Origin: an uncultured virus (IMG/VR IMGVR_UViG_3300049982_000266)
Taxonomy: Duplodnaviria; Heunggongvirae; Uroviricota; Caudoviricetes
Length of the DNA: 64,000 nucleotides
IMG/VR virus record: IMGVR_UViG_3300049982_000266
Reading direction: 5' to 3' (one strand)
Shown here: positions 40,629 through 64,000 of the stretch, piece by piece
Numbering within the stretch: the first letter of the stretch is position 1
How the letters are laid out: each line of letters opens with the position of its first letter
The notes under the pieces: model-generated
Database searches by the model: none
Seen by the model: the letters and a program-made list of their open reading frames with translations, nothing else
Told to the model about the DNA's origin: nothing
Made by a program: the position numbers and the translations under genes

Positions 40629-40704
40629 GTGTCCTCCTGTGATGGTTACCTGTCACGGTAGCACGGCGCCCACCCGCTTAGCGGACGGCGTGCACGGGCT
40701 TAGC
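40629..40704 (-). promoter_or_regulatory. Repeat module with tandem boxes, no hairpin
   Basis: GCTAAGCCCGTGCACG...GCTAAGCGGGTGGGCGCCGTGCTACCGT...CAGGAGG; first TAA is the FtsK-gene stop. Confidence 0.7.
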
Positions 40705-42604
40705 GCGCGACGACGGCTGCCGGGCGCAGCGCGTCGAGAAGCGGGTCGGGGCCGGACTCCGGGTCGGGCGTCCACCACACTTGCACCTCGCGGGGGCCGG
40801 AGCCTACGTCGGCGGTGGCGCGGCCCTTCGCGTCAGCCGGGACGTCGCGGCCGACACTGGAGTCCTGAAACATCATCTTCGCGCCGTCCTGCGAGAGCGC
40901 GCCGAGGGCGACGCGGGCGCCGTAGTTGTCGCGGGCGGCGCCACCGAAGATCGAGGCGTCCGGACGCTGGATGCCGACGAGCAGGTGGACGCGCGCGGTC
41001 CGGCCGAGCCGGGCGATCGAGCGCCACTGCTCGACGACGGGGTGCACCGTGCCGGTCTGGCCCTTCTCGCGGTTCGCCTTCCACCACGCGTTCGAGCGCT
41101 CGATCCACTCGTGCGCCTCGTCGACCACGAGCAGCACCGGGCGGTGCGAGTCCTTCGCCACCCGGCGGCTCTCGACCTCGGCGTAGCGGCTGTCCATCTT
41201 CTCGTGCATCCGCTCCATGAGGTCGATCATGTCCTCGGTGTCGGTCGCCACCTCGGCCACGTTCGGCCAGCCGCGCAGCCCCATCATCTCGACGCGCTTC
41301 GGGTCGAGGATCCGGATCTCGAAGCCGCGCAGCGCGGCCTCCGTGATGAGCGCCCGCAGGGCCACGGTCTTCCCTCCGCCGGTCTCCCCGGCCACGAGGC
41401 AGTGCGGCGCGACACGCAGGTCCCACGCGACCTCGGCGCCGTCCTCGTCGGTGGCGAAGGGCAGCCGCCAGGTGTCGGACAGGTCGGCCGGGACGTGGTG
41501 GTCGATCTTCGCGGGCATGGCCGGGCGCCGAGCGGCGACGACCCGGTCGGCGTCGGTCTCCCAGTCCAGCCGCCAGCGGCCGGGCGCCTTCGCGTTGATG
41601 ACCTCCTGGAGCCCGAAGCGGGTCTCGGGGGCGTCGTCGCGGAAGGTGCTCGGGTAGGCGATGCGGACGGTGCGCGGGCCGACGTCGTCCCAGTCGGCGA
41701 CCTGGATCTTCGGGTCGCCGGTGCGGATGAAGCCCCGGATCGCGGCGTCCAGGCGCTCGGTCAGCACGGCCCGGCCGGAGTCACGCTCGACCGGCGGCTC
41801 GGGCTTGCGAGGGTCGGGGTCGCCCGGCCGGGGCTCACGGAACGTGACGAGGTCGCGGGACGGCTGCCAGTCGGCGACGAGCGGGACGTGGAGCCCGACG
41901 GCCTTGCGGGTGACGGCGACCTCGACCCGAGCGCGGGCCTGGTCGTCGGTGTCGTCAAAGCGCGGGCCGTAGCGGATCTCCAGGCGCCGGGGCGTCATGC
42001 CCTGCCAGCGCCCGGCGGTGATGAAGCCGGGCGCGGTCACGCTGGTCTGCGTCTCGCGGCCGACGATCTCGGCGATGCGGGCGACGACGGCCCGGCGCTT
42101 CGCGACGGTGCGGAGCCCCCACAGGATGCCGACGGCGAAGCCCGCTCCGGCCAGCGCGCCGGTCCGGGCGATCGCGGGGTGGCCGAGCAGCGTCCAGGCG
42201 CCGAGCCACACGAGCAGCGCGCCGAAGTGCGGCCGGAGCCACGGCGCCTCGACCTTCACCGGCGGTCCTCCTCGACGTCGTGCTGCGCGCTCGGTCGCCT
42301 CCCGGGCGGTCTTCGCCCGGTGGCAGTCCTCGCACAAGACCTGGCGGTTGTGGGGGTCGTGGCTGCCGCCGTCCACGAGAGGCGTCACGTGGTCGGCGTG
42401 GAAGGGGCCGTGCGCCGTCCCGCAGCGGGCGCACCGGCGGCCGTTGTCCCGCAGGGTCGCGTCGCGATACTCGCGCTTGTCCCGCTGCGCCAGGCGACAG
42501 GGCCGGTGCGACCGCAGCCGAGGGGCCGCTGGCTCGCCGCAGTAGCGGCAGGTGCCGGGGGGTGCGTCGGGGTGCGCCACCTCGACCTTGCGGTGCTCGC
42601 TCAC
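40700..42604 (-). CDS. HNH nuclease-TM-FtsK/SpoIIIE (TcpA/TraB-like coupling protein) fusion
   Basis: N-term CARC...DHVTPLVDGG...NRQVLCEDCHRAKT; two TMs; HCLVAGETGGGKT, ILDPK, LVVDEA, ARLGR..RVHLLVGIQRPDA. Confidence 0.85.
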   Translation of the reverse strand: MSEHRKVEVAHPDAPPGTCRYCGEPAAPRLRSHRPCRLAQRDKREYRDATLRDNGRRCARCGTAHGPFHADHVTPLVDGGSHDPHNRQVLCEDCHRAKTAREATERAARRRGGPPVKVEAPWLRPHFGALLVWLGAWTLLGHPAIARTGALAGAGFAVGILWGLRTVAKRRAVVARIAEIVGRETQTSVTAPGFITAGRWQGMTPRRLEIRYGPRFDDTDDQARARVEVAVTRKAVGLHVPLVADWQPSRDLVTFREPRPGDPDPRKPEPPVERDSGRAVLTERLDAAIRGFIRTGDPKIQVADWDDVGPRTVRIAYPSTFRDDAPETRFGLQEVINAKAPGRWRLDWETDADRVVAARRPAMPAKIDHHVPADLSDTWRLPFATDEDGAEVAWDLRVAPHCLVAGETGGGKTVALRALITEAALRGFEIRILDPKRVEMMGLRGWPNVAEVATDTEDMIDLMERMHEKMDSRYAEVESRRVAKDSHRPVLLVVDEAHEWIERSNAWWKANREKGQTGTVHPVVEQWRSIARLGRTARVHLLVGIQRPDASIFGGAARDNYGARVALGALSQDGAKMMFQDSSVGRDVPADAKGRATADVGSGPREVQVWWTPDPESGPDPLLDALRPAAVVAR

Positions 42605-43014
42605 CGGCCGAGCCTAGATCATCTCGACCGCCCCGAGCCGTCTCGACGCGCCGCCGGTCGCCCGGCCCGAAGGACGGAGGTGGGCCGACGAGGCGAGCCT
42701 CGGCCAGCAGCGGGCCAGCCGTCCAGCACGGCTCACCCTCGACCTTAGGTTGACACTTCGGGTAGGGTCAGCCGCGCTGTGTAGCGCCAGCGGAGCAGAG
42801 CGGCTGGACCGGGCGGATGGCACACCTCCAGGGCCGACGAGAGCAGCCCGAGGCAGGAGCGGCGGCGAGCCCGGCGGGCGGCCCGAAGGGCTCTCGCCGC
42901 AGGCTGGCACCGACCTCCGACAGAACGGGCGCGAGCGCGCCTGCGGTCGCCGTCCGGACGGGCTCTCCGTCCCACCCTCGACTAGAGGTCGACCCTTCGG
43001 GGTACTGTCAGAGC

Positions 43015-43290
43015 ATGGACGCACGCGGAACCACGTTCGCGACCCTGGAGCCCCCGGCTCCGAGGGCTCCGCAGCGTGTCACCGCCTCCTCGAAGACGCG
43101 CGGTGAGCGCGTCATCGTCCTGCGCCCGGAGGGGCCGATCCGCAACGTCCGCGCGACGTCGGACCCGGTCGAGATCGACGGCGTGCTGCACGTCCGCTGC
43201 GTGTCCGAAGAGGACTGGTACAGGTGGGCGTTCGTCGGCACGAAGCCGACCATCCAGCCCTACCCGGCCTACCTCGTCTTCCTGGAGTAA
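43015..43290 (+). CDS. hypothetical protein; the only clear plus-strand gene, leaderless
   Basis: TACTGT-CAGAGC-ATG; protein-like 91 aa; convergent terminator follows. Confidence 0.65.
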   Translation: MDARGTTFATLEPPAPRAPQRVTASSKTRGERVIVLRPEGPIRNVRATSDPVEIDGVLHVRCVSEEDWYRWAFVGTKPTIQPYPAYLVFLE

Positions 43291-43294: not shown

Positions 43295-43327
43295 GACGCC
43301 CCCCACCTTCTCGGCGGGGGGCGTCGG
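43295..43327. terminator. bidirectional hairpin terminator
   Basis: CGACGCCCCCC...GGGGGGCGTCG between convergent genes. Confidence 0.65.
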
Positions 43328-43329: not shown

Positions 43330-43596
43330 TCAGTAGGGCTCGACGGCCTGCGCGACCGGCTGTTCGTCGGTCGGCGGGATCGGCGTGCCGAAGGGGATGC
43401 ACACGAGCCGGATCGCCGACGGGCTGAGCCCGAGGCGGCGGCTCATCGCGCCCGGCTTCACGCCGTCCCGGAAGGCGCGGCGCAGGGCGTTGTCGCGGGC
43501 CTCGCGCAGCGCCTTGATCTGCTCCTCGTGCCGCTCGATCTGGCGCATGAGGTGCTGCGCTTCGTCCAGGTGGCTGACCTGCTCGGCGGTGGTCAC
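43330..43596 (-). CDS. small coiled-coil + HTH protein
   Basis: ARDNALRRAFRDGVKPGAMSRRLGLSPSAIR. Confidence 0.65.
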   Translation of the reverse strand: MTTAEQVSHLDEAQHLMRQIERHEEQIKALREARDNALRRAFRDGVKPGAMSRRLGLSPSAIRLVCIPFGTPIPPTDEQPVAQAVEPY

Positions 43597-44591
43597 GCGG
43601 CTGCTCCAGGGTCGGGGACGCCGTGGTCGGCGAGCCAGGGTCGGGGGTCGGTCGGGATGCCGTTGACGCGCACCTCGAAGTGCAGGTGCGGGCCGGTGCT
43701 GTTGCCGGTCGTGCCGACGAAGCCGAGCGGACTGCCGGGCTGCACCTCGTCACCGACGGTGACGCTCACGGCGGACTGGTGGGCGTAGTAGGTCTCGACG
43801 CCGTCCGCATGGATCACGCGCACGAGGTTGCCGTAGCCGCCCCCGTTGCCGACGAACGACACGCGGCCAGCCGACGCGGCGTAGATCGGGGTGCCGGTCG
43901 GGGCGGCGTAGTCGAGCCCGGCGTGGTTGGTCGAGCCGATGCCGCCTGGCGACCGGCGCGGTCCGAAGCCGGACGTCAGCACGTACGTGCCGGGGGCCAG
44001 CGGGTGCGTCCAGGGTCCGGCGGCCAGCGGGGCGCAGGTGGCCGGTGCGGCGCCGTCCAGGGTCGTCACGACGGCCGTCGCCCAGCCCTCCTGCTCGGCG
44101 TACCGGAGCGGGAAGGCCGAGCCCTGCACGACCTGCGCCAGCGCGCCGACGGTCATGATCTCCCAGCCGGGGGTCCGCTGCACGCCGTCGTAGAACCACG
44201 AGACGCTGAAGAGCGGGTCGAGGCGCTGCTCGACGCTGCCGTGGTCGTCGATCAACTGGAGTGCGCCGATGCTCGTGCCGTGGCCGTAGGGCAGGTTGCG
44301 CATCCCCGACTCGACCTTGCCTGCGGCGATCGCGGCCACCCACGCCTTCGGCGCGAGCCCCCGGCGCTTGCCCTCGGCGATGAACACCTGAGCGACGGCG
44401 ACCTGCTCGGAGTCGAGCCCGGAGGCGGTGGCCGCCGGGTCGACGCCGATGGAGCACGAGACCGCTGAGGTCGGGCCAACGTCCTCGGCTCCGGCGCCGA
44501 CCGCGACGGTCATCGTGAGCATCCCGACGCCGACGATGCCGAGCGGGCTGCACAGCACGGCGGCGGCCAGCAGCGGCTTCCACGCCCTCAC
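43593..44591 (-). CDS. conjugation-associated peptidoglycan hydrolase (lysozyme-like + M23 peptidase)
   Basis: N-term TM; VESGMRNL...AQVVQGSAFP; HAGLD, YAHQ, STGPHLHFEV. Confidence 0.9.
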   Translation of the reverse strand: MRAWKPLLAAAVLCSPLGIVGVGMLTMTVAVGAGAEDVGPTSAVSCSIGVDPAATASGLDSEQVAVAQVFIAEGKRRGLAPKAWVAAIAAGKVESGMRNLPYGHGTSIGALQLIDDHGSVEQRLDPLFSVSWFYDGVQRTPGWEIMTVGALAQVVQGSAFPLRYAEQEGWATAVVTTLDGAAPATCAPLAAGPWTHPLAPGTYVLTSGFGPRRSPGGIGSTNHAGLDYAAPTGTPIYAASAGRVSFVGNGGGYGNLVRVIHADGVETYYAHQSAVSVTVGDEVQPGSPLGFVGTTGNSTGPHLHFEVRVNGIPTDPRPWLADHGVPDPGAAA

Positions 44592-45088
44592 TCGCGCGCC
44601 TCGCGGACGTCGGCGACCTGCCAGCGGGAGCCGTCGGTGACGAGGTCGACGAGCAGCGTCTCCTCGCTGTTGAGCGTCACCGCGACCGACGCGGTCGTCT
44701 CGCCGACGTCGACCGCCGAGGCGCCGACGACGTTGCCGACGGGCAGCCGGTCGGTCTCGGTGAAGTGCAGCATCTCGGCCAGCGCCGGGGTGCAGCGCTC
44801 GGCCATCTCGCGGTTCCAGATGGCACGCTCGGTGTCGGTCATCGGCGGCGTCGCGAAGATCGACATGAAGCCGCGAGCGGCGTCCACGACGACCTCCTCC
44901 TCGCCCGGCTCGACGACCGGCACCGGGCTCTCGACCGGGGCTGCCGACGGACTCGGCTCGCGCTCGACCGTGATAAGGCGCTCCACGGCGGGCTCCCGGT
45001 ACTCGGGCTCACCGCCGAGGATCCAGGCGGCCAGGAGTACCCCGAGCACGGCGGCGAGGAAGGCGGCGACGCGCCAGCGGCTACGCAT
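44588..45088 (-). CDS. bitopic membrane protein, possible VirB8/TcpC-like
   Basis: N-term TM, NTF2-like C-term (..LLVDLVTDGSRWQVADV); operon position. Confidence 0.5.
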   Translation of the reverse strand: MRSRWRVAAFLAAVLGVLLAAWILGGEPEYREPAVERLITVEREPSPSAAPVESPVPVVEPGEEEVVVDAARGFMSIFATPPMTDTERAIWNREMAERCTPALAEMLHFTETDRLPVGNVVGASAVDVGETTASVAVTLNSEETLLVDLVTDGSRWQVADVREARE

Positions 45089-46961
45089 CGGTCACCTCGG
45101 CGCCGACCTCGGGCCGGTACAGGACGAAGACCTCGTCGCCGTCCACGATCTCCGGCTCGACCGGAGGGGCCAGGCTCGTGTTCGCCGGAAGCACCGGCGC
45201 CTCCTCGTCCTCGGGCACGTAGACGTCGACCGGCGGCAGGGCGGCCGGGGGCGGGGGCTCGATCGCGCCGGTCGACGGGACGACGATCGGCCCGCCCTCG
45301 TGCACCGGCGCCTCGTCCTCGTGCAGACCCGCCACGACGGGCGCTGCGGCCAGGGCGGGGGCCGGAGCCCCGACCGGGGCGATCGCGGGCTGAGCGACCT
45401 GCCGAGGGGCCGGAGCGGGCGCGCTGTAGGACTCGGCCCGCACGGTGGTCGGGCTCTCCTGCTGCTGACGCTCGGCCTCCTCCTCGGCGGCGTTCTCGAC
45501 GGCCTGCTTCGTGCCGACGTACGCGCCGACGCCCGAGGTCACCGCGCCCATCGCGGCCCGCTTCGCGGAGTCGACGGCGCCCCGCGCCTTGTCGCCGAGC
45601 GCGCTGGCCGCATCGCCGAACGGGTCGGGGTTGCGCACCATGCGGGTGAGCCTCCGGAACGGCCGGAGCACGGTGAACATGACGACGCTGAAGAGCGCGA
45701 CGAGCATGAGCGCCAGCCACGTCGGCAGTCCGCTGGCAGGGTCGAGCAAGATCCCGATGCTGAGCACGGTGAAGGCGGCGCCGACACCGAAGGCAACGCA
45801 GTTGACGATGGCCGCGCCGACGGTGTTGCCGACGCCCCGGACCACGCCCGGCATGAGGATGCCCATGACGAGCAGCAGCGGCGCGAACATCACCGCGAGC
45901 CGGACGATGAGGAAGGCGCCGATGATGAGCAGCGCCGACACGAGCACGAACGGGGCGGCGCAGAGCATCGCGAAGAGCGAGACGAGCACGGCCCCCATCC
46001 GGCTCTCCGAGCGCTTGCCGGTGAAGTAGGCGTAGGCGTCCGGATCGGACTCCTGGATCTCGGCGGCGGCCTGCTCCCAGCGCTCCTGCTTCGCCTCGAT
46101 CACGGCGGCGCGTTCTTCGGCGGGCAGCGCCGCCTCGGCCCACGTGAGCGCCTGCGAGTCGAAGATCACCGGCCCGTACTGCTCGGCCGTCGCGCCGTTG
46201 CTCTTGCCGAAGGTCCCGGTGAGCCACTGCTGGTAGAGCACGGCGTCGTGCAGGCTGCCAGCGGCGGCGTCCGCCGGGTCGTCGCTGTCCTGCCCGGCGA
46301 CCCCGTTGAGCCCGGCGTTGACGGCCCCGAGCGCCGTGGTGACGGTGTCGTCGGCGACGTGCCCGGCAGCCACCGGGTAGCGGAAGAGCACCGTCGCCAG
46401 CACCATCACGAAGACGGCCCAGCCGACGGCTCCGGCGGTGCTCGCCAGGTTGCCCCGGCGCGCCTTCCAGATGAGCCCGAAGCCGAGCGCGGCCAGGGCC
46501 AGTCCGAGGAAGGACTCGAAGACGGTCTCGCGCAGCGTCGAGGTGACGTGCTCCAGCAGCCCGTCGAAGGCGCCGAGGAAGGTCGGCTCGAAGGCGACGT
46601 CGGTCAGGGCGTTCGTCAGGGCGACGCCCGCCTTCGGGATCTCCAGCAGCCAGTTCGAGATCGCGGTGCCGACGGTCGCCTCGGGGTTGCGCGCGGCGTC
46701 CGGGCCGCAGCCGAGGTCGTAGGTGGTGAAGCGCAGACCGGCGTAGCCGTACTGCTCATAGATCGACGTCGTCGGCTTCTCGGCGAACGGGTCGCCGGGC
46801 TCGGGCACCTCGGGGTCGGAGGTGAAGTACCCGGCCAGCCCCCGGCCGGGGGTGTCCGGCGTCGGCGCATCCTTGCAGTCGAAGGGGGCGGCCGACGCCG
46901 GAGCGGCGAGCAGGACGAGAGCGGTCAGAGCGAGCCCCAGCAGGGCGAGCAGCCGCCTCAC
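45081..46961 (-). CDS. polytopic conjugation membrane protein (VirB6/TcpH-like)
   Basis: Signal peptide, YEQYGYAGLRFTTYDLGCG, many TMs, Pro-rich tail; follows VirB4. Confidence 0.75.
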   Translation of the reverse strand: MRRLLALLGLALTALVLLAAPASAAPFDCKDAPTPDTPGRGLAGYFTSDPEVPEPGDPFAEKPTTSIYEQYGYAGLRFTTYDLGCGPDAARNPEATVGTAISNWLLEIPKAGVALTNALTDVAFEPTFLGAFDGLLEHVTSTLRETVFESFLGLALAALGFGLIWKARRGNLASTAGAVGWAVFVMVLATVLFRYPVAAGHVADDTVTTALGAVNAGLNGVAGQDSDDPADAAAGSLHDAVLYQQWLTGTFGKSNGATAEQYGPVIFDSQALTWAEAALPAEERAAVIEAKQERWEQAAAEIQESDPDAYAYFTGKRSESRMGAVLVSLFAMLCAAPFVLVSALLIIGAFLIVRLAVMFAPLLLVMGILMPGVVRGVGNTVGAAIVNCVAFGVGAAFTVLSIGILLDPASGLPTWLALMLVALFSVVMFTVLRPFRRLTRMVRNPDPFGDAASALGDKARGAVDSAKRAAMGAVTSGVGAYVGTKQAVENAAEEEAERQQQESPTTVRAESYSAPAPAPRQVAQPAIAPVGAPAPALAAAPVVAGLHEDEAPVHEGGPIVVPSTGAIEPPPPAALPPVDVYVPEDEEAPVLPANTSLAPPVEPEIVDGDEVFVLYRPEVGAEVTDA

Positions 46962-49480
46962 GCGGTCAGCGCCAGGTCGGCGTCGCGGGCCGTCCAGGTG
47001 GGCGTGGCGGTGCTGTCCAGGGCGGCCAGCAGCGCCGGGTTCCACGTCAGGTCGACACGCATCTTCTCGACGTTGCCGTCCACGTCGCGCATGACGAACT
47101 CGCGCGAGCCCGAGCGGGCCGTCGAGCGGCGGTCCTGCGGGCTGAGCCCGGCCAGGGTCGCCTCGTAGCCGACGCCCTCGGGGACGCGCAGCAGCCGGAG
47201 CGCCTGGCGGGCGTGGTCCTCGTCCTGCGTGCGGCCGACGAAGGCCGTGCTGACGAAGTTCGCGACGTCGAGCCCGAGCAGGTCGCTCGCGTTCTGCGAC
47301 GTCGGCATGACGCAGGCGTTCCACTTGCGGCTGTCGCGAGCGAGCCGGGTGAACAGCGCGCGGCCCGACCCCCAGTCGCCGAGGAAGTGCGCCTCGTCGA
47401 GCCCGACCATCTTCCGCTCGCTCATCGCGCGGCCGTAGATGGCCGTCGAGGTGAGGTAGGCGGCCAGGTGCAGCAGCGGGACGGCCAGCGCCTCGCCGGT
47501 GCTCCAGGACTCGCGAGGCACGCCGCGCGGAGGCAGCACGAGCCCCGGCATGGTGAGCACCGTGAGCACGGCGTCCGACGACCGGTCGAGCGAGTAGCCC
47601 GAGCCGTAGAAGAGCCGGGCCAGCGGCATGTCGGCCATGTCGCGCAGGTAGTTGGCGATGACCTTGCCGTGCGGGCTGTCGTGGCCGTCCAGGTTGCGGA
47701 TCACGGTCTGGATCGAGCCGGTGCTGAAGCCGCCGGTGACGCGCACGGCGTCAGCGATCACGAGCCGGGTCTCCGGCATCGCGTCGACCTGCGGCGGCAG
47801 GAGCATCCGCAGGACGTCGGTCACGAGCCCCTTGCGCTCGGCCATCGCCTCGGCCTTCGCCGTCAGCCACAGCGTCTCGTCGGCGAACGCCTCCCGGCGC
47901 GGCTCGGGCACGACGCTGTACGGGTTGAGGGTGCCGGACTCGGCGTGCAGCAGGTCGACGTGCCGCGAGACGCCCTGCAACTCCGGCAGGGTCGTGAGCC
48001 GGGCCAGCGGGCCGGACGGGTCGAGCAGCGTCGTGGTGTTGCCGCGCATCGCGTTCACATAGGCGAGCGCGCCCATGAGCACCGACTTGCCCGCGCCGAG
48101 TCCGCCGACGATCGGCGTCACGCCCGAGGTCTCGCGGACCTCCGTGGCGAAGTGCGGGTCGAACATCACGGCCCGGCGGCTCGTGCCGCAGGTGTAGCCG
48201 AGGTAGGAGCCGCGCCGGTCGCCGAGGCTAGCCGACACGGTCGGCATGGCGGCGGCGAAGGCGAGCACCGGCAGGCGGCGGCGGTGCGCGGTGCTGCTCA
48301 GCGGCTCGCCGGGGATGAACTCGCGGAGCAAGCCCTCCTGCCCCTTCGGGTGCTCGACGGCCATGCGCAGCGGCTTGTAGAGGTCGACGACCTGGCGGGC
48401 GCGGTCCAGGCACTCGTCCTCGGTCGCTCCGGACACCGCGAGGCGGTGCCAGCCGTAGGCGCGGGTCGAGATGACCTCGTGGCCCTCGGTCATCTCGTCG
48501 TCGACCTGGCGGGCGCGGGCGGTCTTGCGCCCGAGGTCGAGCGGGACGTCGATCCCGTGCTCGGCGTAGTGCTTCTCCATGTCGCGGCCGACGAGCAGGC
48601 GGCGGCCGACGGCGGCCTTCGCGTCCTCCCCGGAGAGCATGTCGACGCGGCTGCTCCACTCGACGGTGAAGGGCAGCCGGTCGGCGTGGCTCATCCACGG
48701 GTCGAACGCCGGGTGCGGCGCCACGACCTCGTCGGTGCGGCCGATGGTCAGCACGGCGACGTAGCGGGTGACCTGCTTCCCGGCACGCTCGGCGGTGACC
48801 TTGACGCAGCGTCCGAGCGGCGCAGTCTCGTAGGTGACGCCGTCGGTGAAGGCGTGCAGGTCGCCGGGCTCCCACTCGCCGTTCTCGACGGGGCTCAGCG
48901 ACGACGGCGCTGGCAGCCCGAGCGCGACGCTGCGGTGCAGCAGGAACTCGACGTCGCGGGCGGTTGCGGGCGCGCCCTCGATCCCCGGTCCGGCGACGAC
49001 CTTCGCGATGCTCTTGACCTGCTCGGCGATCTTCTCGCGCTCGCTCTTCGTAGGCTTGCGGCTCAGCATCTCCAGCACGGCGGCGGTCCACGGCCGGTCG
49101 CCGATCTCGACGCCGAGCAGCACTTCCTTCTCGGCGAGCGTCGTGGTCTGGAGGTGCCGCTGCACGGCGACGAGGTGGTCGCTCCACGGGCTCCCGGCGG
49201 CCTTGCCGCCGACGGGCTCGGGGGTGTTGCGGTCCAGTCCCTCGGCCCACACGCGGACCGGGTAGGGACGGCTGGTCACGCGCCAGTGCAGCCGGTGGCC
49301 GGTGAGCCCGGCCAGGGTCGTGCCTGCGCCCATGAGCAGGGCGGTGCGCTGCTTCTCGGAGCGGAACGCCCAGTGCTGCGGCGGCAGGACGAACCACGCG
49401 ACGACGCGGTCACGGGTGATCGTGAGGTTGCCTGCGATCTCGCGCAGGGCGAGCGGACTCTTCGTGGTCTCGGTCTTCAA
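46958..49480 (-). CDS. virB4: VirB4/ConE/TcpF-like conjugation ATPase
   Basis: GGLGAGKS, LLDPSGPL, VGLDEAHFL, LARDSRKWN...SQN; TTG start after AGGAG. Confidence 0.85.
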   Translation of the reverse strand: MKTETTKSPLALREIAGNLTITRDRVVAWFVLPPQHWAFRSEKQRTALLMGAGTTLAGLTGHRLHWRVTSRPYPVRVWAEGLDRNTPEPVGGKAAGSPWSDHLVAVQRHLQTTTLAEKEVLLGVEIGDRPWTAAVLEMLSRKPTKSEREKIAEQVKSIAKVVAGPGIEGAPATARDVEFLLHRSVALGLPAPSSLSPVENGEWEPGDLHAFTDGVTYETAPLGRCVKVTAERAGKQVTRYVAVLTIGRTDEVVAPHPAFDPWMSHADRLPFTVEWSSRVDMLSGEDAKAAVGRRLLVGRDMEKHYAEHGIDVPLDLGRKTARARQVDDEMTEGHEVISTRAYGWHRLAVSGATEDECLDRARQVVDLYKPLRMAVEHPKGQEGLLREFIPGEPLSSTAHRRRLPVLAFAAAMPTVSASLGDRRGSYLGYTCGTSRRAVMFDPHFATEVRETSGVTPIVGGLGAGKSVLMGALAYVNAMRGNTTTLLDPSGPLARLTTLPELQGVSRHVDLLHAESGTLNPYSVVPEPRREAFADETLWLTAKAEAMAERKGLVTDVLRMLLPPQVDAMPETRLVIADAVRVTGGFSTGSIQTVIRNLDGHDSPHGKVIANYLRDMADMPLARLFYGSGYSLDRSSDAVLTVLTMPGLVLPPRGVPRESWSTGEALAVPLLHLAAYLTSTAIYGRAMSERKMVGLDEAHFLGDWGSGRALFTRLARDSRKWNACVMPTSQNASDLLGLDVANFVSTAFVGRTQDEDHARQALRLLRVPEGVGYEATLAGLSPQDRRSTARSGSREFVMRDVDGNVEKMRVDLTWNPALLAALDSTATPTWTARDADLALTA

Positions 49481-49830
49481 GGGGTCTCCTGGATGCGCAC
49501 GCGGCTGGTGGTGACGCGGTGCGCAGTCGGCTTCGCGGGGCGGCTGGCGCGGACCTCGGCGCGCACGGTCTGGAGCAGGCTCCGGACGGTGCGGTCGCTG
49601 TCGACGTAGCCCATGACGGCGTAGGTGACGAGGGTCGCGATGACGGCCTCCCACACCGGGACTCCGACGCCGAGCACGGGCACGATCGCCTTGACGGCCA
49701 GGATGCCGAGGAAAACGGCGATCCAGACCCCGTAGGCGACGTAGCGCGCGTGCCAGGGCAGCGGGGCTCCGGCGGGCCCGAGCCAGATGGCCCGGATGCG
49801 GAAGACGTCGTCGTCGGTACGAAGCCTCAC
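49477..49830 (-). CDS. TcpE/VirB3-like conjugation membrane protein
   Basis: RTDDDVFRIRAIWLGP...LPW..RYVAYG, two TMs, directly upstream of VirB4. Confidence 0.7.
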   Translation of the reverse strand: MRLRTDDDVFRIRAIWLGPAGAPLPWHARYVAYGVWIAVFLGILAVKAIVPVLGVGVPVWEAVIATLVTYAVMGYVDSDRTVRSLLQTVRAEVRASRPAKPTAHRVTTSRVRIQETP

Positions 49831-50075
49831 TGGATGATGATGCCGGTCAACTCGTCGGCGAACGAGTAGAGGATCGGCCCGGCGGCGATGACGACGAGCC
49901 CGATGAGCACGAGCGTCATGGTCGAGGCGGCGTCGGACACGCGGCCCTTGCGGCTGCTCGCGATGATGCCGATGCCGATGACGAGGCACAGGATCGGGAC
50001 GATGAGGCGGACGCCCGCCTCGACGATCCCGTCGGTGTTCAGCGTCGCGGCGAGGGTGATGCTCTCGTGGATCAC
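49827..50075 (-). CDS. TcpD/VirB2-like small two-TM protein
   Basis: 82 aa, two hydrophobic helices, first gene of operon. Confidence 0.6.
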   Translation of the reverse strand: MIHESITLAATLNTDGIVEAGVRLIVPILCLVIGIGIIASSRKGRVSDAASTMTLVLIGLVVIAAGPILYSFADELTGIIIQ

Positions 50076-55242: not shown

Positions 55243-56973
55243 TCAGCCGACCATCACCGGCCCGGTGTGCACCTGCACCGAGCCGACGAGGAAGCCGCGC
55301 TCGGCGGCGTAGGAGACGGCCGCCTCGCGCATCGTGAAGTACGGGCCGGTCGGCTTGCGGGTGGCCGGGTCGACCGCGACGTGCTTCGTCTCGACGAAGC
55401 CCTCGGTCACGGCGACCGGCTCGGCGACCGGCTCGGCGACCGGCTCGGCGACCGGCTCGGCCGGAGCGACCGGCTGGACGACCGGGAGGTCGCCCTGCTC
55501 GTCGAGGTAGGACGCGAGCGTGCCGACGTCCAGCCGGACCTTCGCGCGGGTCACCGCGACGTAGGCGAGCATGAGGTCCGCCGGGCTGATCTTGTCGGAC
55601 TCCAGCGCGAAGTCGGCGATGCGCACGGCGTCCCACTCGCGGCCCTTGCTCTTGTGCGCGGTGGAGATGACGACGTCGGCGTACTTCTCGTCCGACGCGC
55701 TCTTCAGCACGCCGAGGAGCGTCTGCGCGCCGCGCTCGTCGATCAACTTGACCATCGTCGCGAGGTCTCCGGTGGTCTCCTCCTCGGAGACGTACTGCTG
55801 CACCATCTTCCAGTCGACGAAGGCGGCCAGGTCAGCGTGCTGCGTGCCCTTGCCCGCCATGAGGTCCAGGGCCGCCTCACAGAACTTCACGCTCTCGGTC
55901 GTGCCGCCGACGAGCGCGGCCTTGCGACCCCGCTGCTGCTCGGCCAGCAGGGCGGCCAGGCACCCGGCGTTCGTGCGGCACAGGATCGCGTCGCTGTCCT
56001 GAGCGCCGGGGACGTCGAGGGCGACCCGGACGCTCGGGACCTTGTCGAAGCCCTCCAGGCGCAGCGGCGCGTCGAGCACGTTGAGGAAGACGTTGGCCGT
56101 CTCGGCGACGGCCGGGCCGAAGCGGAAGGACTGCGAAAGCGTGCGGACCATCGTGCCGCGAGCGGCGAACTTCGCCATCGCGTCGACCGCGCCGGTGAAG
56201 CCGTAGATCGCCTGCGCACTGTCGCCGACGAGGATGACCTGGAGGTGCCTCTGCTGCTCGACGACGGCGGCGATGACCGGGTTCGCGTCCTGCGCCTCGT
56301 CGAAGAGGAGCACGTCGCCGTCGATCTTCGGCGAGGACAACTGCCACATCTTCAGGTAGTGGTCGTGCGTGAAGCGGACGAAGCCGGTCTCGCCCTGGAG
56401 GTCGGCCCACACGCGCTGAGCGTGCGGCAGGAGCGCCTTCGCGATCTCCTGGTTGATCGGGCCACGGACGGCACCGCCGCGCGGGCCGGGGGCGTCCAGA
56501 CCCTCGATCGCCGGGAAGTGATGCGTGCCGATCTCGGTGTCGGCCGAGCGGCAGAAGCCAGCGACACCGGCGAGCACGTGGCGAGCGAGCGTGACGTTGC
56601 TCAGCATCCGGTGCTGGTCGCCGAAGCCCTTGACCGTCATCGGCGACAGGCGCAGCCACTTCGCGACCTCGGACGGCCACTGGCGGTTCGCGCGGAGCCG
56701 GGCGGCGTAGCGCTTGCCGACGGCCTGGAAGGCGAGGGAGTGGGCGGTGCCCGCGCGGACGTTCACCGGGAACGAGCCCTTCGCCTCGTCGGCGATCGCG
56801 CGGTTGAAGGCGACGTAGGTGAAGCGCTTGCTCGGGGCGGCCTCGGCCAGCAGCCGGAGCGTCGAGGTCTTGCCGGTGCCCGCGCCCGCCTGGATGACGA
56901 GGTTGTCGCCGGTGAGGAAGGCGTCGCGGATCGCGGCCTGCTCGGCAGTGGGGGCGAAGGTCGTGGCGGTCAT
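55243..56973 (-). CDS. UvrD/REP-like SF1 helicase
   Basis: AGAGTGKT, FDEAQD, VGDSAQAIYGF, LSQSFRFG, STAHKSKGREW, YVAVTRAK. Confidence 0.9.
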   Translation of the reverse strand: MTATTFAPTAEQAAIRDAFLTGDNLVIQAGAGTGKTSTLRLLAEAAPSKRFTYVAFNRAIADEAKGSFPVNVRAGTAHSLAFQAVGKRYAARLRANRQWPSEVAKWLRLSPMTVKGFGDQHRMLSNVTLARHVLAGVAGFCRSADTEIGTHHFPAIEGLDAPGPRGGAVRGPINQEIAKALLPHAQRVWADLQGETGFVRFTHDHYLKMWQLSSPKIDGDVLLFDEAQDANPVIAAVVEQQRHLQVILVGDSAQAIYGFTGAVDAMAKFAARGTMVRTLSQSFRFGPAVAETANVFLNVLDAPLRLEGFDKVPSVRVALDVPGAQDSDAILCRTNAGCLAALLAEQQRGRKAALVGGTTESVKFCEAALDLMAGKGTQHADLAAFVDWKMVQQYVSEEETTGDLATMVKLIDERGAQTLLGVLKSASDEKYADVVISTAHKSKGREWDAVRIADFALESDKISPADLMLAYVAVTRAKVRLDVGTLASYLDEQGDLPVVQPVAPAEPVAEPVAEPVAEPVAVTEGFVETKHVAVDPATRKPTGPYFTMREAAVSYAAERGFLVGSVQVHTGPVMVG

Positions 56974-57052
56974 CTCGTGCTCCTGGTCTGTCGGTGTGGG
57001 CCGGTCGCTCACCGGTTGAGAGAACCATAGCACAGCCGTACCTCGGCTTAGC
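56974..57052 (-). promoter_or_regulatory. Repeat module with leader hairpin
   Basis: GCTAAGCCGAGGTACGGCTGTGCTATGGT ... CCGG-TGAGCGA-CCGG (57001-57015) ... CCAGGAG. Confidence 0.85.
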
Positions 57053-57157: not shown

Positions 57158-58753
57158 CTACCTCGGGAGGGCGTCCCCGAGCATGGCGCGCACGTCAGCG
57201 ACGACGCTCGTGCCGAGCATGTCGTACGCCTGCGCCGCGCCGGTCTTGCCGCTCCCGCCGAGCCGGTCGACGGCGCTCTTGCGGTACTGCGCGACGAAGC
57301 GCAGTGCCTCCTCGGCCGTCCAGTCCTTCACTTCGCGCTTCAGGTGCGCGCGCTGACGCTGCGTCATCTTCGAGACCGTCGTGCCGTGGATCGTCGCCAG
57401 GACGTCGATCTCGTCGAGCAGCCACGTCCGGCCCTGCTCCGGGTCGACGGGCGGCGGACCGGCCGGGTCGTCGGCGGGCACGAGCGGGCTGGAGTTGACC
57501 GGGTCGTCGGAGCGGGGCTCCTCCGGGGCGCTCTCCGGCTCGCTGGCGGGCTCGGGGACCACCTCGGCCTCGACGGTGCCGTCCTCGTGCTCCGCGCCGG
57601 GAGCGGCCTCCTGAGCGGCCTCGACGGGCTGCTCGGCGGCGGGCGCCTCAGGTGCGGCCGGAGCCTGCTCCTCGGTGAACGGCTGCCCGCTCTGGACGGC
57701 GCCAGCGGCGGCGCGCAGGAAGGCGTCGAGGTTGGTCTCCTCGCCCTTCAGCCCGCGCACCGGCGTGATGACGCGGCGCTCCGGCGGGCCGGTCTCCTCC
57801 CACGCCGCAAGGATGACCTGGCGACGGGCGGCGGGGTCGGCGCTCTCAGTGAAGGCGGCGAGCACGATCTTGCGGATCTGCTCGGCCTTCGCCGGGAGGA
57901 ACGGCTGCGGGGGCTCCGGCGCGGCGGCGGGCTGCGACAGGGTCTCGACGACCTCGCCGTCGATCACGGAGCCGTCCTCGTCGACCAGCGCGCCCAACTC
58001 CTCGGCGGTGTAGTGCGCACCGGCCAGCACCTCCTCAGCGCCTTCACGGACGACTTCCGAGATCGCGCGGGCCTTCGCCATCGCCTCCGGGTAGGTCTCC
58101 CAGTTGCCGGGCTTGTCGTTGCGGGTGCGGGCGCGCACGGTCCACTTGCCGTCGGAGCCCTGCTGGTAGGAGTCGACGAGCCCGGCGCGCACAGCGCGGT
58201 CGATCGTCCAGGTCGCCTCGAAGGTCCAGTCGGGGTCGTCGCTGCGGATGAGGTACGCGGTCGCCTTCAGGTCGCCGCCCTCGACCGAGCCCTCGACCTT
58301 CATGCGCATCTTGTGGCCCGCCCGGCGCACGAGCGCCGACATGAGCGCGGCCGACGCCGTCGGCTTGCCGTCGATCACGTGGATGCCGGTGATCGCGGCC
58401 ATCGGCGCGATGCCCAGCATGAGCCCGTACTCGACGGCGTAGAGCACGTTCGCCGGGGCGCCCCGGTACTGCGACGGGAGCAGGTTCGCGTTCGCCAGTT
58501 CGCGGGCGTAGCGGATGCGGGCGTTGAGGCTGAGGTTCGGGCTCGACATGGTCGGCATGAGGGCGCTGCCGGGCGTCACCTCGTCGGCCTTCGGCTCGAA
58601 GCCCGCGTTCGCAGTGCGACCGCCGGTCGAGATCGTGCCGTCGGAGATGGTGCTGCCGATGATCTGGCCCTCGGCGATGCGGTCGGTGGGCGTGCCGTTC
58701 GCAGGGTGGTCAGCGCCGGGTGCGGGCGCCTGGTCGGTCGGGACGTCGGTCAC
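57158..58753 (-). CDS. recT: RecT-like ssDNA annealing protein with long C-terminal extension
   Basis: LLPSQYRGAPANVLYA..YG.MLGI.PM.A...IHVIDGKP...W.TYPEAM..ARAIS...R. Confidence 0.8.
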   Translation of the reverse strand: MTDVPTDQAPAPGADHPANGTPTDRIAEGQIIGSTISDGTISTGGRTANAGFEPKADEVTPGSALMPTMSSPNLSLNARIRYARELANANLLPSQYRGAPANVLYAVEYGLMLGIAPMAAITGIHVIDGKPTASAALMSALVRRAGHKMRMKVEGSVEGGDLKATAYLIRSDDPDWTFEATWTIDRAVRAGLVDSYQQGSDGKWTVRARTRNDKPGNWETYPEAMAKARAISEVVREGAEEVLAGAHYTAEELGALVDEDGSVIDGEVVETLSQPAAAPEPPQPFLPAKAEQIRKIVLAAFTESADPAARRQVILAAWEETGPPERRVITPVRGLKGEETNLDAFLRAAAGAVQSGQPFTEEQAPAAPEAPAAEQPVEAAQEAAPGAEHEDGTVEAEVVPEPASEPESAPEEPRSDDPVNSSPLVPADDPAGPPPVDPEQGRTWLLDEIDVLATIHGTTVSKMTQRQRAHLKREVKDWTAEEALRFVAQYRKSAVDRLGGSGKTGAAQAYDMLGTSVVADVRAMLGDALPR

Positions 58754-59246: not shown

Positions 59247-60776
59247 CTAGCAGGCGGTGCCCGCGTACGGGATGCCGCCGAGGTTGCGCTGGTGACCGCT
59301 CGGCTTCGCGAACTGGTTGACGCCGAGCACGAAGTAGGTCTGCACGAACTTGACCATCGCGTCGAGGTTCGCTCCGTAGTCGCCGAGGGCGACCTGCCCC
59401 TGCTCGTTCGTGCCGAACGAGCCGTCGAGCGCCTGCTGCTGCTCGACCTTCGTGCGCTGCGCCGTCACGATCGCCTTAGCCCGGACGGCAGCGGTGCCGC
59501 CGGAGGGCAGGACGAGCGCGGCCGTCAGCGTGTTCGTGAACTCGGCCGGGCCAGCCGGACGGGTCAGGCGCCCGCCGTTGTCGCTGTCGCCGTCCGGGTA
59601 GTAGACGTCGCCGTTCTGCCGGTAGGGCGTGCCGTCGGCGCTGCCGCCGAGGGCGTTGTAGGCGCGCTCCACGCCGTAGAGGGTCATCGGCGAGTGCTGC
59701 GTGCGCACGGCACCGTTGAGCGCCCACGAGGCGTACTGGTGCGGCGTGCGGGTGTAGACCGGGCTGCGGACGTCGTGGTTGCGCACGATGCCGCTGGTCT
59801 CGTTGTTGGAGCCCTTCAGCCACTTGCAGAACGGCACGCCGTTGTAGAGCACCTGCTTCGAGTAGTCGGCCGTGGTCGCGAAGGCGTGGGCGCCCATCGC
59901 GGCCTGGAAGCGCTCGTAGTGGTCGACGTTTGCGGCGTACGCGGTGCCCGGCAGCATCCGGACCGCGACGTTGAGCAGGCGCTCGTGCCACGCCAACTCC
60001 TCGGCGGCCGAGTTCTCCTGCTCGCCGTTGTTGACCACGTTGTTGCCACGGTTCGGCATGACCGCCTGCTGGAGATCCCTGTACCACGCGAGGTCACCGA
60101 GACCGCGCTCCTGAGGGGCAGCGGCCTTGCACACGCCGTTCGGGCAAGGGGTGCGGTCGAGCCCGGTCGTCCAGTGAGCGACGAGCCGGACGGTACGCAG
60201 CACCTTGTCCTGGATGAGCGGGGTGAGGGCGGGCCAGATCGCCCACGCCGCCTCGGCGATCTGCGCCGTGGTCAGCGTCCAGTCCGGCACGGCACAGTCG
60301 GCGTGCGGCGGGACGCCGATCGAGGCGTTGCCACCGGCTGCGGTGTACGGGTACGGGTCGCACGCGAGGCGCGCGTCGTCACCGGCCAGCAGGGCGGTCG
60401 TGAACTTGTCGATCGCCGTGACGGCCTGTGCCTGCCAGGCGCCGTTGACGCTGGTGCCGCCGACGACGCTCGGCATGACCGAGGCGTAGGCGAGCACGAG
60501 CGCGAGGTCGGAGACCCGGCGGCCGTTGCCGTTGAGCGGGCCAGGCAGCGTCGAGCCGGAGCCCGCCGTGATGACCGGCATGAGCCGGGTCGCCATCGCC
60601 TGAAGAGCGATGACCTCCTGCGCGAGCACCGAGTCGGTCGGGGCGGGCGGGGGCGGCGGGACGAAGGGCTGGAGCGTCGGGTCGGCGAGCGCCTGACCGG
60701 GGACGAGCGTGATGCTCAGCGTGGCCGCGAGCAGCGACGCCGTGAGGGTGGCGCCGAGGCGCCTGAGACGGGACAT
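59247..60776 (-). CDS. secreted 509-aa protein of unknown function (moron-like)
   Basis: Sec signal peptide ending ALA; own -10 (TACGGT), RBS and terminator. Confidence 0.8.
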   Translation of the reverse strand: MSRLRRLGATLTASLLAATLSITLVPGQALADPTLQPFVPPPPPAPTDSVLAQEVIALQAMATRLMPVITAGSGSTLPGPLNGNGRRVSDLALVLAYASVMPSVVGGTSVNGAWQAQAVTAIDKFTTALLAGDDARLACDPYPYTAAGGNASIGVPPHADCAVPDWTLTTAQIAEAAWAIWPALTPLIQDKVLRTVRLVAHWTTGLDRTPCPNGVCKAAAPQERGLGDLAWYRDLQQAVMPNRGNNVVNNGEQENSAAEELAWHERLLNVAVRMLPGTAYAANVDHYERFQAAMGAHAFATTADYSKQVLYNGVPFCKWLKGSNNETSGIVRNHDVRSPVYTRTPHQYASWALNGAVRTQHSPMTLYGVERAYNALGGSADGTPYRQNGDVYYPDGDSDNGGRLTRPAGPAEFTNTLTAALVLPSGGTAAVRAKAIVTAQRTKVEQQQALDGSFGTNEQGQVALGDYGANLDAMVKFVQTYFVLGVNQFAKPSGHQRNLGGIPYAGTAC

Positions 60777-62440: not shown

Positions 62441-62736
62441 GCTTCCTCGGGGGTGTAGCGGTAGGGGGTCAGGGGCTCGCCGGGCTCGCCGACGTTGGCG
62501 GTGTAGTGCGCCAGGGCGGCCTTCGTCAGCACGCGCGAGACGCACCGCTGAGCCTCCGGGCTCTTGCGCCCGTCGACTCCCTCCAGTCGTCCGGTGAAGG
62601 TGCACAGGTGCAGGTTGAGCACTCGGCCGCCGGTGTCGGACAGCACGGAGATCACGGCGGCGAAGTTGACGCCGCCGTTGCCGACGTCAGCCCCACAGCG
62701 GTCGCACTCGACAGAGCCGTCAGGTCGTGTGGTCAT
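62437..62736 (-). CDS. hypothetical protein
   Basis: 99 aa, leaderless after TACGCT. Confidence 0.6.
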   Translation of the reverse strand: MTTRPDGSVECDRCGADVGNGGVNFAAVISVLSDTGGRVLNLHLCTFTGRLEGVDGRKSPEAQRCVSRVLTKAALAHYTANVGEPGEPLTPYRYTPEEA

Positions 62737-62755
62737 GACCCGGAGCGTACAGCGG

Positions 62756-64000
62756 CTACGCGGCCCGGCCGGGAGGCACGCGGCTCTCCAGCGTCTCGAT
62801 CCGAGCGAAGGCGTCCTGAAGCGCGGCGACCGAGGTCGACAGGAGCGCGTACAGGTCGATCCCGAGCGAGCCGTCGGAGTCGATCGTGGTGACGATGACG
62901 TCGGCGATGTCGGCGGGCAGGGCAGCGCGGGCTTCCTGCGCCACGACGCCTCGCCCCCGACGCAGGTTCGTGACGTCCCGCGCCTTGACGTTGCGCGTGG
63001 CCCGCAGCGAAGTGGAGCCCTCGACGTCGGCCTCGCCAGGGCTGTCGGCGAGGCCGGGCGTGACCTGCTTCAGTTCGTAGTCCCGGACCCGCAGAGCCTT
63101 GATCGCGGTGACGGCCGACGAGGTCTCGGTGTCCTGCACGCCGCTCTTCATCCGCTCGTCCGAGCCGGTGATGTGCGCCGATGCGACCGAGCGGATGTAG
63201 GCGCCACCCGCCCAGTTGATGATCTGCATGTTGTCCCACGTGCCGTCCCAGTTGTAGCGGATGGCACCGCCTCGACCACCGGCGGGCGGGGTCATGAGGC
63301 GCAGCAGAGTGCTGAAGGCGTTGTTGGCCGAGCCGACCAACTCCACGTAGTCGCCGCCGGTCATGAGGGTGTGGGCGCTGCTCGTGACGCGGTTGTACCA
63401 CGAGACCGAGGACGTCATCTGCACGGTGCCGCTCTGCGTGATCGCGATGGCGGTGTTGTTGCCGCGCGCGTACATGACGACGTCGTTCGAGTTGATGATG
63501 ACCGAGGCGCCGTAGGTGTCGCGCACGTTGAGGCTGATGCCGTCCGGGCGGATGTTGACCTTCGACGGGCCGGGGCTTCCGACGGACGAGAAGGTGTCGC
63601 CGGAGTAGGCGCCGCTGAAGAGGTCGAGGGTGCTGCTGCCGATGCCGCCGACCGTCGTGTAGGTCGCGTGGATGCTGGCGGGCTGGTGCGTCAGCGAGTT
63701 CGTGTGCAGGGTCATGCCCGCGTGCCCGGTCGGCGGGCTCTTCCACAGGGTGATGCCGATGCCGCTGGTCGGCGTGGTGCGCGTCGAGACGTCGGACGCC
63801 TGCACGATGCCTGCGAAGCGCGCGCTGCCGGTGTTGGAGATGAAGACGGTCTCGACGCTGCCGCTGTAGGCGTGCAGCCCGGTCGCGTTGAGTTCCACGC
63901 GCGAGCCGGTGTCGGCGGTCTTGATGCGGGCGCCGATGAGAACGTCGGCGTCGAGCGTCCCGGCGGTCAACTTCCCGACGTTGAGGCTGCCGATCTTCGC
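62756..64000 (-). CDS. phage tail fibre/minor tail protein with C-terminal peptidase S74 chaperone (5' end outside window)
   Basis: KLTAGTL...ARIKTADTGSRVELN beta repeats; SDERMK...GVVAQE...IDLYALL...ALQD coiled coil. Confidence 0.85.
   Translation of the reverse strand, partial: AKIGSLNVGKLTAGTLDADVLIGARIKTADTGSRVELNATGLHAYSGSVETVFISNTGSARFAGIVQASDVSTRTTPTSGIGITLWKSPPTGHAGMTLHTNSLTHQPASIHATYTTVGGIGSSTLDLFSGAYSGDTFSSVGSPGPSKVNIRPDGISLNVRDTYGASVIINSNDVVMYARGNNTAIAITQSGTVQMTSSVSWYNRVTSSAHTLMTGGDYVELVGSANNAFSTLLRLMTPPAGGRGGAIRYNWDGTWDNMQIINWAGGAYIRSVASAHITGSDERMKSGVQDTETSSAVTAIKALRVRDYELKQVTPGLADSPGEADVEGSTSLRATRNVKARDVTNLRRGRGVVAQEARAALPADIADVIVTTIDSDGSLGIDLYALLSTSVAALQDAFARIETLESRVPPGRAA

Follow-up and report, generated by a model that had tools for sequence, protein, structure and literature searches.

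Here, we describe a 64,000-nucleotide stretch of DNA from an uncultured virus (IMG/VR record IMGVR_UViG_3300049982_000266), hereafter the window, in which an operon resembling a Gram-positive type IV secretion system (T4SS) and an adjoining gene for an FtsK-type ATPase lie directly downstream of phage-type recombination and replication genes. We propose, at what we judge to be an even chance, that together they form a resident, phage-regulated DNA-transfer block in a large tailed-phage-like genome, taken from actinobacterial plasmids or from elements of the actinomycete integrative and conjugative element (AICE) type. A first-pass annotation, made from the letters of the DNA, had read the operon as resident and co-regulated, and we come to the same view on the basis of a promoter and leader of the element's own kind, intact gene motifs, junctions bridged by independent contigs, and an operon with no integrase, attachment (att) site or target-site duplication around it.

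The operon consists of seven genes, g94 to g88, at 43330-50075 on the minus strand, which is the strand of every gene given below unless otherwise stated. Proteins were annotated by Pfam, PHROG and NCBIfam profile searches on the 111 open reading frames (ORFs) of the window, and these recovered all the genes that the first-pass annotation had named for the T4SS-like operon, the FtsK-type gene and the phage replication genes upstream. The operon opens with g94 (82 aa) and g93 (117 aa; together 49477..50075), small proteins with two predicted transmembrane (TM) segments each, conserved in 56 and 59 of 63 loci; two such proteins are indeed there, but their labels (VirB3, or TcpD/TcpE as first annotated) are given by position only. 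Next comes g92 (46958..49480; 840 aa), a VirB4/TcpF-like ATPase matching AAA_10 (PF12846, 3.7e-27, 95.8 bits against a cut-off of 27.5) and NCBIfam TcpF (6e-29, 100 bits, far below the family cut-off of 1100), with an intact Walker A motif (GGLGAGKS) and a DE motif that is invariant in the alignment. It is followed by g91 (45081..46961; 626 aa), a VirB6-like polytopic membrane protein with at least 6 predicted TM segments, which matches the NCBIfam CD3337/EF1877 mobilome membrane protein (8e-10, 38 bits, below the cut-off of 120) and gave no Pfam TrbL match. The bitopic, VirB8-like g90 (44588..45088; 166 aa) is predicted by an AlphaFold2 model from 18 aligned sequences (pLDDT 86.7) to have a TM helix and an NTF2-like domain (3 helices/4 strands), and its best Foldseek rows, weak ones (E 3.8e-3 to 5e-2, TM-score 0.35-0.57), include OrfG (ICESt3), TcpC (pCW3), PrgL (pCF10), and TraM (pIP501). 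The last two genes are g89 (43593..44591), a membrane-anchored M23 peptidoglycan hydrolase (PF01551, 2.6e-34) with intact HxxxD and HxH motifs, and g88 (43330..43596; 88 aa), which by ORF call and TM prediction is soluble and HTH-like (helix-turn-helix). Throughout the block, ORFs are full length with intact motifs and a G+C content at third codon positions (GC3) of 0.92-0.99.

A GC-rich hairpin at 43296..43324, read from the sequence as a bidirectional terminator, separates g88 from the convergent g87 (43015..43290), the only credible plus-strand gene here. The C-terminal ~80 aa of g87 are conserved beside the module in 17 relatives, relative to which the gene is inverted in the window. Between g87 and the divergent g86 lies a putative control region (42605..43014) with two copies of a palindrome-bearing motif (42729-42762 and 42968-43001). 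In g86 itself (40700..42604), Pfam identifies an HNH endonuclease domain (2.4e-9, residues 58-101, HNH finger intact) fused to an FtsK/SpoIIIE-type ATPase (FtsK_SpoIIIE, 2.2e-15, 57 bits against a cut-off of 24), with Walker A (406-413) and Walker B (491-496) intact. About a dozen homologues align with g86 from the N-terminus. Its likeness to a TraSA-like protein is 29% identity over 123 aa only, and its top-scoring match among deposited "phage" records is in a Tn916-bearing record (100 bits, 31.6% identity).

The regulatory DNA of the operon ties it to the rest of the window. Its promoter and leader (50076..50164, minus strand) comprise the palindrome CAGCGCAC-T-GTGCGCTG at 50140-50156, a -10 element (TAGCGT) at 50131-50136 and, downstream, a GATCCAC box, a hairpin with GAGCGA in its loop at 50102-50120, the ribosome-binding site ACAGGAAGC and a GTG start. 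A variant leader of this composition (TAGCGT, GATCCAC, hairpin, ACAGGAAGC and GTG) is common to the T4SS-like operon, the RecT-like g104 and the exonuclease-like g102, with the g104 leader being the most similar to that of the operon. The arrangement is found in 0/56 of the relatives' operons, and these 56 carry a different conserved leader upstream. As the leader is common to the RecT and exonuclease units and occurs in none of the relatives, the comparison supports an operon wired into the regulation of its host element. The GAGCGA hairpin that the first-pass annotation had singled out exists, folds, and belongs to a leader common to phage-type units, but the hexamer taken by itself shows no enrichment (84 seen, 107 expected).

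More generally, intergenic GAGCGA falls in the loop of a folded GC stem at 10 of 11 sites, with at least 6 different stem sequences; no such fold forms at the remaining site (g16), and z-scores of single sites are modest. These hairpins are part of a reiterated unit made up of a GCTAAG -35-like box (sometimes overlapping the TAA stop of the preceding gene), ~17 nt, a TAnnnT -10, the GAGCGA-loop hairpin, AGGAG, and a start codon. GCTAAG occurs 14 times where 5.1 are expected (0/100 shuffles reach 14), with 12 of the 14 on the minus (coding) strand, and the -10 region GTGCTACNGTTCT occurs 11 times where 2.0 are expected, while TAGCGTNGATCCAC with 3 mismatches stays at chance level. As first annotated, the g86 stop codon lies inside such a box: the copy at 40699-40704 contains the TAA, and together with a second copy at 40677-40682 and GTGCTACCGT, the -10 region of the unit that follows (g85), it makes up a feature, found by motif search, at 40629..40704 (minus strand). 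The reiterated unit may be where an RNA- or DNA-binding regulator encoded by the phage binds. Examples on the minus strand are at 58781, 55185, 50108, 36972, 35978, 24784, 15656, 13099, 8448, and 1722. The conserved leader of the chromosomal relatives (L003-L063) reads GTCCGCGCTCGCTCGGGGAGGCGGC ... CTCGGGAGGT, about 60-130 nt upstream of the g94 homologue (for example, L008 9220-9345), and is a candidate cis-regulatory RNA; Rfam gave 0 matches in the window, L008, and L039.

Is the block an insertion, or an artefact of assembly? For relaxase, integrase and head-gene searches, 9 further ORFs from gaps were added to the 111. Among these, there is no integrase or transposase and no relaxase family at E <= 0.01, and around the block there are no flanking repeats above the ~80% identity expected by chance, no target-site duplication, and no att site. 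The first-pass annotation's statement that no integrase, transposase or att-like junction is present at the operon therefore holds, and the target-site duplication that it had named as part of a counter-indication was not found. An assembly chimera of a phage and a conjugative element might be suspected from the soil metagenome source and from the sequence occurring in one run only. Against this, the region is tiled by independent Logan contigs, which show 0 differences and a depth of 18.3-20.7x, and single contigs spanning 38000-43688 and 47999-53627 bridge both junctions, making mis-assembly unlikely; in addition, G+C is uniform at 0.72-0.74 and the leader motif is found on both sides of the junction. 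We consider that a chimera has next to no chance of being the explanation. The many short "joints" in the run were rejected, having sides of <30 letters from other organisms.

Related blocks occur in other viral records. Single-protein scans of IMG/VR with VirB4 and with g75 gave no confirmed relative; an alignment-profile scan with VirB4 gave five loci at 42-52% identity, four of which have a g86-like FtsK gene downstream, and two of which (L163 and L165) also have a g81-like YdjM gene, in the window's order. The large terminase subunit (TerL) is present in 4/4 searchable block-bearing records (phrog_38, 2e-93 and 3e-88; phrog_9, 3e-49 and 2e-38), and portal and head genes in three of the four (G006, G007, and G009). 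The Pfam families Phage_capsid and Phage_portal missed head genes in G006-G009 that PHROGs found, and silence of Pfam elsewhere means little. The T4SS-then-FtsK order being kept in four divergent, TerL-bearing records argues for selection within phages.

In G006, the block is at 25-38 kb of an 85 kb record, inside a prophage, in the order T4SS-like genes, FtsK, YdjM. On one side of it and on the same strand are genes for a RecE-like exonuclease, RusA, a methyltransferase, an HNH/rep protein, and DnaB; on the other are anti-repressor, baseplate, sheath and tube, major head, portal, TerL, and endolysin genes, with an integrase at the record end and none between 15 and 58 kb (Pfam scan of L163, PHROG scan of L179). 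To judge from gene order, this arrangement, with the block after recombination/replication genes, mirrors that of the window. G007 and G009 are siphophage-type records with tape measure, major tail, portal, TerL, integrase, and replication genes, to which G009 adds a major head protein and G007 head-maturation and morphogenesis proteins. In a quick tree of VirB4, which includes fragmentary or over-long rows (L042, L053, and L063), the G006 protein groups with chromosomal Kineosporiaceae-type proteins, apart from the window's group, which hints at more than one capture. As a separate observation, the papain-like peptidase g78 (37104-37766; phrog_16701, 5e-51) is 32% identical to G007 48743-49387 and is the only backbone gene outside the block common to a block-bearing viral record.

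Outside viruses, the module has many relatives at the protein level, and a megablast of 40700-50200 against deposited phages and plasmids gave no DNA match. The VirB4-like g92 has 1627 homologues in a large protein database, the nearest at 55-59% identity, and VirB4 identity reaches up to 63% in the genomic loci fetched (Nocardioidaceae, Kineosporiaceae, and soil contigs). VirB4 relatives are found in 603 plasmid records, the best being from Nonomuraea (41%) and small Streptomyces plasmids (36-40%), where the gene order is kept, with an FtsK protein after it or a type IV coupling protein before it; among deposited phages, they are found in only 3 Firmicute records, which carry Tn916-like DNA. 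What 61 genomic loci share with the window is only g89-g94 and part of g87, with no flanking genes, and their 10-kb flanks contain cargo-type genes. In 3/5 long genomic contexts, a pSAM2-type AICE core (NUDIX, GntR, a 444-450 aa FtsK, WhiB, RepSA, Xis-like, and Int) is found 5-23 kb downstream, oriented the same way, with a chromosomal phosphoenolpyruvate carboxykinase gene beyond it in the two contexts read that far. The module normally travels with FtsK-type translocases. The earlier analogy with the Tcp/Tn916 apparatus stands for the channel parts, but no relaxase was found. By pairing the module with such translocases and with AICE cores, the relatives point to the actinomycete FtsK route. 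In the passages available to us, the literature treats VirB4-type and FtsK-type transfer as separate (PMC3218068, PMC3429521).

The same relatives yielded some further observations. The AICE cores near VirB4-type modules are at L039 16900-22100, L161 4600-11800, and L162 8200-15200. One VirB4 homologue (P0008, 1181 aa) contains a PF14528 LAGLIDADG domain, which suggests that its interruption is an intein, and the VirB4 match of L164 (10001-13675) is interrupted and spans 3.7 kb in DNA of 44% GC. L008 has, at 300-5800, a second T4SS-like cluster (AAA_10, EccE-like, TrbL/VirB6, DUF6112, and M23) divergent from the module studied here.

What kind of element carries the block? G+C is uniformly 72-75% along the window, and 108 of the 111 ORFs (called by GC3 frame-plot) are on the minus strand, giving transcription in the direction from 64000 to 1. 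In the protein database, the VirB4-like protein of the window sits on a 127,106 bp contig, and the sequence occurs in one DNA sequencing run, a soil metagenome that is probably its source (no RNA run is listed), while a search with an exact 40-mer gave no match in viral, genome or metagenome contigs; the window is thus about half of an uncultured element, whose host is a high-GC soil actinobacterium. The first gene in the direction of transcription is g111 (62756..64000), 415 aa from the C-terminal end of a larger tail-fibre/spike-like protein, with its frame open to the window end. As first annotated, it is an S74-chaperone fibre on the same strand as the block: Peptidase_S74 (PF13884) reaches 25.3 bits where the cut-off is 22, phrog_1980 matches at 3e-13, and the S74 intramolecular chaperone domain has an SDERMK motif and a terminal coiled coil. 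Small genes and a tRNA-Leu follow, and then g106 (59247..60776; 509 aa, N-terminal TM/signal), whose ESM Atlas model resembles (alpha/alpha)-toroid polysaccharide-lyase catalytic domains, as a lead only. Next are the RecT-like annealing protein g104 (57158..58753; phrog_561, 1.9e-40), with tblastn matches in 523 phage records, and the UvrD/SF1 helicase g103 (55243..57033; phrog_1967, 7.9e-87). They are followed by the exonuclease-like g102 (53778-55154; phrog_1674, 3.6e-6), the WhiB g101 (53494-53781; PF02467, 5.2e-18) and, from profile searches, the HNH g97 (52033-52371), the rep-initiator/primosomal-like g96 (51131-52036), and the HNH g95 (50165-50719), with an unannotated ORF (50716-51285) between the last two, and then by the T4SS-like operon. 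Beyond the block is g81 (38530..39213), a YdjM-family membrane hydrolase (PF04307, 4.7e-27). In total, 22/111 ORFs have PHROG matches, five of them < 1e-40 (g75, g77, g78, g103, and g104), and HNH-type genes number four.

That the element is a phage we consider quite probable from its gene content and from that of its relatives. The claim of phage identity gains from TerL in 4/4 block-bearing viral records and from the embedding of the block in G006, but the window itself contributes one fibre gene and no head or packaging genes. The maintenance of the element as a phage-plasmid, also suggested in the first-pass annotation, did not find backing, as there is no ParA/ParB among the window's 111 + 9 ORFs; the rep/primosomal-like g96 is present.

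How might such a block work? In the route we propose, the M23 hydrolase g89 would open the wall; the 2-TM proteins, the VirB6-like g91 and the VirB8-like g90 would form the membrane channel; and the VirB4-like ATPase g92 would assemble or power it. The FtsK-type motor g86 would then drive DNA of the element into a cell in contact, in the manner of TraB/TraSA in actinomycete plasmids and AICEs, with its HNH domain supplying the cut or nick otherwise made by a relaxase, and a control region may be made up of g87 and the two palindrome-bearing repeats that lie between it and g86. Since the leader of the T4SS-like operon matches those of recombination genes, transfer would probably be switched on together with early replication. 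The outcome would be virion-independent, contact-dependent spread beside infection by particles. We put contact-dependent DNA transfer (mating) by the element at slightly short of an even chance. More speculatively, and in our view unlikely as it stands, there may be a recurrent class of actinobacterial tailed phages that has domesticated a VirB4-type channel and an FtsK-type motor and placed them under an early-gene switch, such that the replicating genome is pumped into touching cells.

Comparison with known systems shows the window to be a mixture. With Gram-positive minimal T4SSs (pCW3 Tcp, Tn916/ICESt3, pIP501, and pCF10), it shares a VirB4/TcpF-like ATPase, small TM proteins and a wall hydrolase; further likenesses are a candidate VirB6-like protein with its below-cut-off match to the CD3337/EF1877 family, a putative VirB8-like protein that is bitopic and of NTF2 type, and, next to these, an FtsK-like ATPase as candidate coupling protein. 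It differs from them in having no relaxase among the ORFs scanned (oriT, the origin of transfer, was not searched for), in its hydrolase being M23, in g86 having an HNH domain and no TM anchor, and in its phage-like host element. With the actinomycete TraB/TraSA systems (Streptomyces plasmids and pSAM2-type AICEs), it shares an FtsK/SpoIIIE ATPase adjoining the module and the lack of a relaxase, and the module's relatives adjoin NUDIX-GntR-FtsK-WhiB-RepSA-Int cores; unlike in those systems, g86 has no gamma/wHTH (winged HTH) domain match. The divergent small gene and palindromes of the window recall kil-kor control. AICE transfer is treated as independent of VirB4-type parts in the sections of PMC3429521 available to us, whereas VirB4-type and FtsK-type parts occur together in the window.

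Elements that combine phage and transfer features are known. pZL12/phiZL12 of Streptomyces is a plasmid-phage that conjugates by a TraB-type locus (PMC3583192, from the portion available) and, like our element, is an actinobacterial element combining the two kinds of feature; unlike it, pZL12 uses a TraB-type locus only, and we found no report of a VirB4-type operon for it in the accessible text. Integrative and conjugative elements (ICEs) were described in association with prophages, as 612 phage-ICE tandems and as nested ICE::Phage forms, in which there are two complete elements, each with an integrase and att sites to itself, "rather than a hybrid element" (Sci Adv 2026, PMC13651849, from the parts available to us). 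The window resembles these in linking prophage-type genes and conjugation machinery on one unit, and G007 and G009 could be such tandems. In contrast to ICE::Phage forms as there described, the window's block has a phage-type promoter/leader, with no integrase, relaxase or att site around 38.5-50.2 kb. Phage-plasmids (P1, N15, and SSU5 types) are similarly large temperate-phage-like genomes with plasmid-type genes, and the window differs in showing no partition genes. The term "conjugative prophage" has been applied to Phi1207.3. According to a review (PMC12282955), no phage-plasmid or prophage is known to be conjugative. Our literature search gave no case of a tailed-phage genome containing a VirB4-type apparatus that the phage controls, within a scope that did not extend to the supplements of PMC13651849, which may list actinobacterial cases.

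Several observations weigh against a resident transfer apparatus of a phage. In the 111 + 9 ORFs of the 64-kb window, about half of the contig, there is no capsid, portal or TerL gene. The "TerS-like" g50 (20084..20842) of the first-pass annotation does match phrog_4102 (2.4e-13), but only over its N-terminal HTH (profile positions 7-90 of 166), and no TerL is next after it; the g111 fibre fragment has no tblastn match in deposited phages and no homologue of 227-725 aa was found. As for the motor, g86 has no predicted TM segment and no match to an FtsK gamma/wHTH or alpha domain, unlike the FtsK proteins of L165-L167, which have an alpha domain with or without gamma; its identity to the FtsK proteins in the viral-record loci is no more than 25-35%; the HNH fusion is Pfam-detectable in only 1/14 homologues scanned; and the database version of the protein starts at residue 116, without the HNH domain. 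The weak structural matches of g90 count on the same side. Deposited actinophages with VirB4 of the window's type number none, and an AICE core is within the 10-kb flank of only 1/61 genomic loci. In G007 and G009 the block is at the record end in opposite orientation, with an insertion sequence (IS) transposase separating it from the phage genes in G007, and it could there be a tandem neighbour as well as a resident part. Lastly, an early-type promoter would place transfer in a cell about to lyse, an odd time for mating.

Some of these points would be explained by a nested or decayed insertion of the ICE::Phage type, that is, by a fragment of an AICE, ICE or plasmid that has lost its integrase and is carried as cargo, of use to the host or to itself, without a part in phage spread. 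The closest VirB4 relatives (55-63%) are chromosomal, with AICE cores in 3/5 genomes, or on plasmids; the 61 genomic loci share module genes only; g87 is inverted; an IS transposase borders the block in G007; the position of the G006 VirB4 in the quick tree hints at repeated capture; and ICEs inserted into prophages have been reported (PMC13651849, in the parts seen). We nevertheless rate such an insertion as unlikely, though not negligible, given that the window searches gave no integrase, att site, target-site duplication or relaxase, that promoter and leader have been replaced by the phage's own, that ORFs run full length, have their motifs intact and show GC3 of 0.92-0.99, and that the T4SS-like-then-FtsK order is kept in four TerL-bearing records, two of them with YdjM. 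It may also be asked whether the element is a phage at all, or instead a conjugative plasmid or ICE that has gathered phage recombination and replication genes, with the "fibre" being a mating adhesin. The missing head and packaging genes, the TerS-likeness limited to an HTH, the fibre without a phage match by tblastn, and the 603 plasmid records with VirB4 relatives all fit this. Yet 108/111 ORFs on one strand, reiterated promoters and leaders, four HNH-type genes, a tRNA, an S74 fibre architecture, several strong PHROG matches, the lack of ParAB, relaxase or transposase in the window searches, and TerL in 4/4 related block-bearing records make it improbable. Of a different nature is the option that the apparatus has been repurposed for envelope remodelling, protein secretion, superinfection exclusion (of phages or plasmids), or as an aid to DNA entry or release. 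The promoter common to early recombination genes would suit such a role, as would the lack of a relaxase and of a membrane anchor in g86, and M23 domains are common in tape-measure proteins and lysins. Because channel parts and a DNA translocase are kept together across plasmids, AICE-linked loci and phage records, which is a signature of DNA transfer, we consider repurposing decidedly improbable, and a resident DNA-transfer block remains our preferred reading.

Several backbone genes are of interest in their own right. The 990 aa g63 (25345-28317) belongs to a family of about 220 members with no Pfam domain, occurring in 61 IMG/VR loci with GC from 33 to 71% and absent from G006-G009. Its neighbours in the three closest annotated loci are beta-clamp, clamp-loader, DnaB or P-loop ATPase genes, a helicase is near the homologue in nine other loci, and ESM Atlas gave no usable match; g63 may be an unrecognised phage replication protein. 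The AAA+ protein g75 (33479-35638; phrog_29662, 1e-85), with an unmatched 230-aa N-terminus, shares 35% identity across 466 aa with the "ATP-dependent protease" found in the Bacillus jumbo phages AR9 and PBS1. The family of helicase g103 occurs in 35 IMG/VR loci at 36-49% identity, and neither these nor the 61 g63 loci have synteny to the window or T4SS genes. The called ORF g107 (61049-61660) overlaps a tRNA-Leu(CAG) gene at 61167-61254, which a 272-nt non-coding stretch follows, and is probably not a gene.

Gene flow through phages and gene flow through conjugative elements are regarded as distinct routes. On the more speculative reading of a recurrent class, these would be the first phages with a VirB4-type conjugation apparatus, and they would gain a second, receptor-independent route of infection. 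A phage in control of its own mating channel could get round receptor-based resistance and, within mycelia or aggregates, spread with no need of free particles. Such a phage would also blur the tools that sort contigs into "virus" or "plasmid/ICE". Moreover, VirB4-type modules beside pSAM2-type AICE cores challenge the accepted split between T4SS and FtsK transfer in Actinobacteria, as drawn in the available portion of PMC3429521. If its host is cultivable, the prophage of G006 may offer a system in which phage-borne mating can be tested.

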